In this document: piece after piece, positions 56,384 to 59,300 of the stretch | Layout of the letters: the number at the start of each line of letters is the position of its first letter | How positions within the stretch are numbered: the first letter of the stretch is position 1 | Sequence record: PQ356294.1 | Length of the DNA: 64,000 nucleotides | Source of the DNA: Escherichia phage Ec_YwIITB1 | Direction: 5' to 3' (one strand) | The notes under the pieces: model-generated | Told to the model about the DNA's origin: nothing | Databases searched by the model: none | What the model saw: only the letters and a program-made list of their open reading frames with translations | Position numbers and translations under genes: made by a program

Positions 56384-59300
56384 ATGGCTACTTTAAAACA
56401 AATACAATTTAAAAGAAGCAAAATTGCAGGTCAGCACGTCCTGCTGCTTCAGTATTAGCCGAAGGTGAATTGGGTATTAATTTAAAAGACCGTGTACTTT
56501 TTACTAAAGATGACCAAGGAAATATTATTGATCTGGGTTTTGCTAAAGGCGGTAGCATTGACGGGAATGTTATTCATATAGGAAACTATAATCAAACTGG
56601 TGATTATACTTTAAATGGCACCTTCACTCAGACAGGTAATTTTAATTTAATCGGTATTGCTCGAGTAACTCGCGATATTATTGCCGCCGGGCAGATTATG
56701 ACCGAAGGCGGAGAACTTATTACAAAAAGTTCAGGTACATCACATGTTCGTTTTTTCGATAGCAATAGCCGCGAACGCGGAATCATTTATTCACCGGCTA
56801 ATGATGGATTAACTACACAAGTACTTAATATCAGGGTTCAAGACTACGCCGCTGGTAGCGAAAGCACCTATGCATTTTCAGGCAATGGCTTATTTACTTC
56901 ACCTGAAGTATCAGCATGGAAATCTATGTCAACTCCTCAGATTTTGACCAACAAAGTCATTACTAATAATAAATCTACAGGTGATTATGACATTTATTCG
57001 ATGGCAGATAATGTTCCACTGTCTGAAAGCACTACTGCTATTAATCATCTCCGTGTCATGCGTAATGCAGTCGGTTCTGGCATTTTCCATGAAGTTAAAG
57101 ATAATGATGGAATAACTTGGTACAGCGGAGATGGGCTAGACGCTTATCTTTGGTCATTTACATGGAGCGGCGGAATTAAATCGAGTCACTCAATTTCTAT
57201 CGGTTTAACACCTGGCAATAAAGATTATTCAATACTAGGACCATCTAGTATTGCTTTAGGGGATAATGATACTGGATTTAAATGGCACCAGGATGGATAT
57301 TATTTCAGCGTCAATAATGGAACGAAAACATTTTTATTTAGTCCTAGCGAAACAACTAGCCTAAGAAAATTTGTAGCTGGATATTCTACTAACGGAACCG
57401 ATTTAACTACTCCTCCTACTGAAAACTATGCTCTCGCTACTGTTGTTACATATCATGATAATAACGCGTTTGGAGATGGTCAGACTCTTTTGGGATATTA
57501 TCAAGGCGGTAATTATCATCATTATTTCCGCGGTAAGGGTACTACAAACATTAATACTCACGGCGGTTTGTTAGTTACTCCAGGTAATATTGATGTTATT
57601 GGCGGTTCTGTTAATATAGATGGTAGAAATAATTCTTCTACACTAATGTTTAGAGGTAACACAACTGGTAGTAGTTCAGTTGATAATATGACAATTTCCG
57701 TATGGGGTAACACGTTTACTAATCCTAGTGTAGGTAATCGTAAAAATGTCATGGAAATTTCTGACGCAACTAGTTGGATGAGCTATATTCAAAGACTTAC
57801 TACCGGTGAAGTAGAAATGAACGTTAACGGTTCATTTGAATCATCTGGTGTTACTGCTGGAAATAGAGGAGTTCACACAACAGGTGAAATTTCATCTGGG
57901 GCCGTGAATGCGCTTCGCATTTGGAACGCAGATTATGGTGCCATTTTCCGTCGTTCAGAAAACAGTCTTCATATTATTCCAACTGCCTATGGTGAAGGCA
58001 AAAATGGCGATATCGGTCCACTTCGTCCGTTTAGTATGTCTTTAGATACAGGTAAGGTTGTTATTCCTGACCTAGATTTGAGTCATACAACTTTTGCTGA
58101 AAATGGTTTTATTAAATTCGGTGGGCATGGTGCTGGTGCCGGTGGTTATGATATTCAATACGTCCAAGCAGCTCCTGTTTTCCAAGAAATTGATGATGAC
58201 GCGGTAAGTAAATATTATCCTATTGTTAAGCAGAAATTCTTACAAGGAAAAGCTGTTTGGTCTTTAGGCACTGAAATTAATTCCGGGACTTTTGTTTTAC
58301 ATCATTTAAAAGAAGATGGTTCACAAGGCCATACATCAAGATTTAATGCTGACGGTACAGTTAATTTCCCTGATAATGTTCAGGTTGGCGGTGGTGAAGC
58401 TACTATTGCTCGAAATGGTAATATCTGGTCTGATATTTGGAAATCGTTTACTTCAGCAGGAGACACTACAAATATTCGTGATGCAATAGCTACTCGTGTT
58501 TCTAAAGAAGGCGATACGATGACCGGTAAGTTGACTTTATCTGCTGGAAATGATGCCCTTGTTTTAACTGCAGGCGCGGGTGCTTCATCGCACATCCGTA
58601 GTGATGTAGGTGGTACAGGTAACTGGTATATAGGCAAAGGCGGCGGCGATAATGGTCTAGGTTTTTATAGTTACATTACACAAGGCGGTGTATACATGAC
58701 AAATAACGGCGAAATATCGCTTTCTCCTCAAGGTCAAGGAACATTTAATTTTAATAGAGACCGCCTTCATATAAACGGTACACAATGGGTTGCGCATAAA
58801 TCTGGCGCCTTTGGTGACCAATGGGGTTTAGAAGCTCCGATATTTGTAGATTTTGGATCCGTCAGCAATGACTGCTATTATCCTATTATTAAAGGAAAAT
58901 CTGGTATTACTAACGAAGGATATTTTTCCGGCGTAGATTTTGGTATGCGACGCACTACTAATAACTGGGCGCAAGGTATTATTCGTGTAGGTAACCAGGA
59001 AAATGGTTCTGACCCGCAAGCTGTATATGAATTCCACTATAATGGAACTCTGTTTGTTCCTAACATGGTTCAAACTGGAGCAAGATTATCAGCTGGCGGT
59101 GGTGACCCGGTGTGGACTGGGCCATGTCTTGTTATTGGTGATAATGATACTGGTTTAGTCCATGGCGGTGATGGCCGAATCAATATGGTTGCCAATGGTA
59201 TACATATTGCAAACTGGGGCGCAGGCTATCAATCTCATCCTGGGCTTTGGGATTCAACCGGTGCTTTTTGGACAGAAGTTGGAAGAGCTATCGTTTCTCA

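Follow-up and report, generated by a model that had tools for sequence, protein, structure and literature searches.

Gene 37 of T4-like phages is listed as essential in Table 3 of PMC8573959, and a trimer of its product gp37 is described in PMC6957217 as forming most of the distal half-fibre. The window analysed here is a stretch of 64,000 nucleotides from Escherichia phage Ec_YwIITB1 (PQ356294.1). Its gene 37 resembles the T4-type genes of the T2/T6/pSs-1 subtype in synteny, start codon, Shine-Dalgarno box, N-terminal motif, the Peptidase_S74 domain and the accompanying gp38 adhesin. However, the window ORF is split after codon 16, which is not so in the relatives listed or inspected. Changes of reading frame are known in other phage genes. 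Translational bypassing occurs in T4 gene 60, and the tail chaperone genes of phages use -1 frameshifting. In these systems, as in the case considered here, a structural phage gene changes frame after a short 5' segment. Unlike them, gene 37 of the window has no slippery heptamer, stop-adjacent codon pair, stimulatory structure or conservation of the arrangement. Almost certainly, the split does not exist in the phage itself, and the gene is an ordinary gene 37 of the T2/T6/pSs-1 type with a consensus error.

The window derives from a Tequatrovirus (T4-like) genome, in which it spans the region from upstream of gene 19 to motA, and contains head, baseplate, nucleotide-metabolism and tail-fibre genes. 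The closest phages in the phage collection have best identities of 96-97.4% to it. The gene order at the tail-fibre locus is 34-35-36-37-38-t, and the position of gene 37 fits the late tail-fibre cluster 34-35-36-37-38. The neighbouring genes are as follows:

50648-54514, gp34, placed by tblastn with the pSs-1 protein
54526-55638, gp35, placed by tblastn with the pSs-1 protein
55704-56375, plus strand, gene 36, long tail fibre distal hinge connector, an intact ORF of 223 aa directly upstream of gene 37
59729-60502, plus strand, gene 38, tail fibre adhesin of the T2/T6 type, intact, downstream of gene 37

Gene 36 matches the Pfam family Phage_T4_gp36 (E=4e-33) and phrog_1425 (E=2e-71), and gene 38 matches the Pfam families GP38 (E=5e-74) and Gp38_N (E=2e-21). 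In tblastn searches, residues 1-218 of pSs-1 gp36 align in one frame at 55704-56372, and residues 1-259 of pSs-1 gp38 align in one frame at 59729-60499. The exact products of gene 36, gene 38 and the large ORF of gene 37 are absent from the contig index.

The region of gene 37 contains the following elements:

56374-56379, plus strand, Shine-Dalgarno box AAGAGG of gene 37, 4 nt 5' of the ATG, invariant in the alignment with relatives
56384-56431, plus strand, codons 1-16 of gene 37 in the original frame; relatives share the N-terminal motif from the same ATG
56384-56458, plus strand, truncated 24-codon ORF of gene 37 from the ORF listing, with the stop codon TAG at 56456-56458
56432-56435, plus strand, CAGC, the site of two extra bases according to alignments with relatives
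56434-59697, plus strand, remainder of gene 37 in the +2 frame, intact, 1,087 codons plus stop
56470-56472, plus strand, TTG, candidate site of reinitiation, located 12 nt past the TAG; no canonical start codon precedes it in the downstream frame

The ATG at 56384 is the position where the relatives annotate the start of gene 37, and in the record of phage Ac3 the homologous GAGG is annotated as the ribosome binding site of this gene. The conserved gp37 N-terminus of the relatives consists of 13 shared residues followed by (T/I)AG. The initial annotation assigned the 16 residues encoded from 56384 to the N-terminus of gp37, and the same motif starting at the same ATG in the relatives bears this out. 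The interruption after codon 16 was also identified correctly, but the stop codon does not stand directly there: eight out-of-frame codons (QHVLLLQY) follow, and the TAG at 56456-56458 comes after codon 24. A scan for promoters and terminators around the gene 37 start gave nothing above the shuffle expectation.

From 56413 on, the +2 frame has no stop codon until the one at 59695-59697, and the two frames overlap by 43 nt at 56413-56455. As had been noted, the remainder of the gene continues in another frame that has no ATG to start from, the first canonical start being the TTG at 56470; the first ATG in this frame is at 56698. This remainder is intact. Residues 10-1102 of pSs-1 gp37 align in one frame at 56413-59694 with 97.3% identity (tblastn). 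The match of the large ORF to phrog_1699 (long tail fiber distal subunit) has E=0 and covers profile positions 31-1000 only; the ORF ends in the C-terminal Peptidase_S74 chaperone domain (PF13884). Thus the window has no single uninterrupted gene 37 ORF from the conserved ATG, whereas in the relatives the gene is uninterrupted.

We aligned the site of the interruption with sb3, Ac3 and pSs-1 and tabulated the alleles at codons 16-18 of gene 37 in ten relatives. The aligned sequences are GCAGGTCAGCACGTCCT in the window, GCAGGTCAACTTCCT in sb3 and GCAGGAGCACGTCCT in Ac3 and pSs-1. The lesion had been described as a 1-nt indel near 56432; the alignments show instead two extra bases within 56432-56435. 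The relatives carry either CA or GC at this place. The CA allele was found as GGT-CA-ACGT (Gly-Gln-Arg) in two relatives (L004 and L006) and as GGT-CA-ACTT (Gly-Gln-Leu) in sb3, and the GC allele was found as GGT-GC-ACGT (Gly-Ala-Arg) in two others (L007 and L008) and as GGA-GC-ACGT (Gly-Ala-Arg) in Ac3 and pSs-1. The window reads GGT-CA-GC-ACGT, that is, it has both alternative dinucleotides in tandem.

Removal of either CA (56432-56433) or GC (56434-56435) produces a single ORF of 1,103 codons. The homology to T-even gp37 then extends over the full length. The repaired protein of 1,103 aa is 97.7-97.8% identical to residues 1-1102 of pSs-1 gp37, and its N-terminal 61 residues match positions 1-61 of phrog_1699 with E=1e-44, so the resemblance to the gp37 N-terminus is not due to chance. 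An interrupted inverted repeat at 56415-56450 (GAAGCA...GCAGG / CCTGC TGCTTC) has the indel in its loop. This repeat is also present in the relatives, and its fold is no better than that of shuffled sequences.

We then searched for the insertion in other sequences. Megablast with 301 nt around the site matched 687 phage records, and in all 40 matches listed 300 or 301 bases of the window pair with a stretch that is 2 nt shorter. A 41-nt query centred on the insertion matched 600 records; 30 of the 30 matches listed align 41 bases to 39, and the full 41-mer occurs in none of the 600 phage records. In IMG/VR, neither the exact 26-mer with the insertion nor a degenerate pattern with the 9-nt spacing of the window was observed, whereas the pattern with the normal 7-nt spacing was found six times. 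The 22-mer with the insertion is absent from the GTDB genomes. Two matches to this 22-mer in the JGI metagenomes come from GC-rich soil bacterial sequences unrelated to phage and were discarded as chance. Overall, no T4-like sequence with the insertion was found in about 600 phage records, IMG/VR, the JGI metagenomes and the GTDB genomes. On the other hand, the repaired gp37 N-terminus is encoded in one piece from residue 1 in every match listed. At least 80% of it is covered in 996 phage records, and these phages range from Tequatrovirus to Klebsiella and Acinetobacter phages.

Comparison of the sequences suggests, with a probability of about 0.85, that the two extra bases arose as a mistake in the sequence as deposited or assembled and are absent from the phage itself. 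This record alone has the lesion, which is incompatible with viability, and similar lesions are observed elsewhere in it. The latter were found in a survey of frame breaks, in which all annotated pSs-1 proteins of the homologous region were compared with the window by tblastn. As a control, the pSs-1 protein set was run in the same way against phage sb3, and only one frame break was found there, in a small hypothetical gene. The main lesions in the window outside gene 37 are the following:

5809-7370, gene 23, major capsid protein, broken into ORFs 5809-6321 and 6450-7370, with the break zone at 6300-6400
10357-11786, hoc, truncated by a 1-nt deletion at 10834 (GGTGC-TCCGTG)
22645-22658, loopless palindrome GGGGACCGGTCCCC, an intergenic terminator-like hairpin downstream of gene 54
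40324-41498, nrdB, two ORFs, with a 4-nt deletion at 41005
45435-46012, frd, dihydrofolate reductase, two ORFs, with a 4-nt deletion near 45683

A sequence error had been proposed as the most likely cause of the interruption of gene 37, and the breaks elsewhere in the window agree with this proposal. It does not hold, however, that the problem concerns gp37 only, as gene 23, nrdB, frd and hoc are broken as well. These breaks in the same window are the strongest argument for an artefact.

In gene 23, the homologue is read within 6300-6400 successively in frames 0, 2, 0 and 2, with stop codons in between, that is, there are three frame changes within about 100 nt. The corresponding stretch is 321 nt long in the window compared with 325 nt in 15 of the 15 relatives listed. 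Judging by the alignment, the segment looks like a scramble of the pSs-1-like and the PYps32T/sb3-like alleles.

At 41005 in nrdB the window reads CCA----CGAG, compared with CCAATATCTAG in RB51 and CCATTCACGGG in T4 and sb3; the missing block is ATAT in RB51 and pSs-1 and TTCA in T4 and sb3. The nrdB gene of the window has no intron. The homing site of the T4 group I intron and I-TevIII was considered as the position of this break and ruled out, as it maps to approximately 40827, 180 nt away. In frd, the window reads GGCGAAC----AATTGA compared with GGCGAACCAGAAATTGA in the RB3-type allele, and the relatives have the 4-nt block CAGA or TAGG at the deletion. The hairpin at 22645-22658 has no loop in the window. 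In the relatives it has a 4-nt loop that is flipped between them, GGGGACC-GAAA-GGTCCCC in pSs-1 and GGGGACC-TTTC-GGTCCCC in sb3. Finally, the C-terminal 158 residues of hoc go on in another frame, with 96% identity to pSs-1. There are no N or other ambiguous bases in the window, and thus the break sites were not flagged by the assembler.

Most of the lesions in the window sit where the relatives differ by a short block substitution. In this they resemble the consensus artefacts that arise at multi-nucleotide polymorphisms. The lesion in gene 37 consists of both alleles in tandem, and the clean 4-nt losses coincide with the alternative blocks GAAA/TTTC in the hairpin, ATAT/TTCA in nrdB and CAGA/TAGG in frd. 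Unlike such artefacts, the changes at 10069 and 61913 are differences in homopolymer length, and the deletion at 10834 has no obvious allelic basis. Some small indels, such as the latter one in hoc, have no obvious block polymorphism, and this counts against an artefact.

The consensus was probably corrupted at several sites where relatives differ by blocks of 2-10 bases, and the corruption would be of two types. In the first type, the bases of one allele would be added while those of the other are kept, so that both alleles are present, as in gene 37. In the second type, the block would be dropped without replacement, so that neither allele is present, as in the hairpin loop, nrdB and frd. 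One possible route, suggested by this footprint, is a consensus made from two co-assembled alleles (mixed-allele assembly). Alternatively, a reference-guided or polished consensus could have split a multi-nucleotide substitution into an insertion and a deletion, of which only one was applied. The phage itself most likely has an unbroken gene 37 of 1,103 codons, which begins with ATG 56384 and encodes ...KIAG followed by A or Q.

The lesions differ in how much they say about the quality of the sequence. In the laboratory, T4 can do without nrdB, frd and hoc. The breaks in these genes could therefore be genuine and alone do not prove that the sequence is poor. Gene 23 and gene 37 are virion genes and essential, and hence no phage that carries both lesions could form plaques. 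In particular, gp23 is indispensable to a viable phage, and a capsid gene with three frame changes is incompatible with plaque formation. The argument for an artefact rests chiefly on these two genes together. Gene 37, the major capsid gene 23 and other genes are broken alike, and therefore an error of assembly or consensus is almost certainly the cause.

It is unlikely that the 2-nt insertion is real. A real insertion would mean that the record represents a defective genome, or a major subpopulation, complemented by co-infecting wild type, or else that an N-terminally truncated gp37 is produced from TTG 56470. Indeed, the extra bases are present in the sequence as given, and the rest of gene 37 is intact, as would be predicted if the mutation were very recent. 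The sequence between the stop codon and the TTG 12 nt further on includes AAGGTG (56462-56467), which could allow for weak coupling or reinitiation. The TTG is the sole conceivable reinitiation point. However, the spacing between this Shine-Dalgarno-like sequence and the TTG is only 2 nt. Moreover, a gp37 initiated at the TTG would lack its 28 N-terminal residues, which are the most conserved ones of the protein and correspond to positions 1-30 of phrog_1699. A random insertion of 2 nt would also have to strike the polymorphic dinucleotide and to spell exactly the alternative allele. Finally, the same genome has a destroyed major capsid gene, which is beyond rescue by reinitiation. With a real insertion, a gene essential for adsorption would have to be expressed through recoding or reinitiation, and this analysis gave no support for either.

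Programmed recoding of gene 37 is highly improbable. It would involve a shift from frame 0 to the +2 frame (-1 or +2), or a hop of peptidyl-tRNA-Ala over 8 nt from GCA 56426 to GCA 56434, similar to the bypass in gene 60. The overlap of the two frames and the identical GCA codons, placed at a distance of 8 nt and in frames that would suit a hop, are consistent with such a mechanism. However, the overlap 56413-56455 contains neither a zero-frame slippery heptamer X XXY YYZ nor a homopolymer run; its codons are aga agc aaa att gca ggt cag cac gtc ctg ctg ctt cag tat. In addition, the codon following the take-off GCA is GGT rather than a stop codon, so that the match of the two GCA codons does not amount to a bypass site of the gene 60 type. 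The fold of the downstream RNA is no better than that of shuffled sequences (56410-56530, minimum free energy -22.8 kcal/mol, shuffle mean -21.0, z = -0.55). The two-frame arrangement is not conserved: it was found in no relative across the four collections (phage records, IMG/VR, JGI metagenomes and GTDB), and the relatives encode the junction in one frame. A literature search gave no report of recoding in gene 37; apart from the table listing gene 37 as essential, the papers retrieved for gp37 frameshifting use the word in unrelated senses. It is scarcely conceivable that the insertion is real and full-length gp37 is made by unprogrammed or newly arisen recoding, through the same 8-nt hop between the GCA codons or a -1/+2 shift within the 43-nt overlap; if true, it would show that in nature a phage can tolerate a frameshift in an essential fibre gene by means of low-level recoding.

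If the two extra bases are a consensus error, as we suggest, annotation of the record should report neither a truncated or TTG-initiated gp37, nor a split major capsid protein, nor split nrdB, frd and hoc. Studies of host range and tail-fibre engineering based on this sequence should use the repaired gene 37 ORF. Frame breaks at block-polymorphic sites are also a sign by which a mixed-phage lysate or a faulty consensus step can be recognised, and this is useful for screening deposited T4-like genomes. Broken essential genes also occur in other deposited T4-like records, for example in that of sb3. Among deposited genomes, that of Shigella phage sb3 (PQ666541.1) is the closest relative, and its gp34, nrdB and alt are annotated as split.

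Several minor length differences were also observed in the window. Compared with both pSs-1 and sb3, there are deletions of 44 nt at 32285 and of 21 nt at 32690, around rIII and gene 31. Differences of 1-2 nt from the relatives were found at 10069, 35790, 61913 and 63919. Three of these four sit in short runs of the same base (T5 to T4, G4 to G2, and C4 to C3). The four differences affect the beginning or end of small ORFs, namely a DUF2774 gene, pSs-1 gp230, pSs-1 gp265 and the region that lies upstream of motA.
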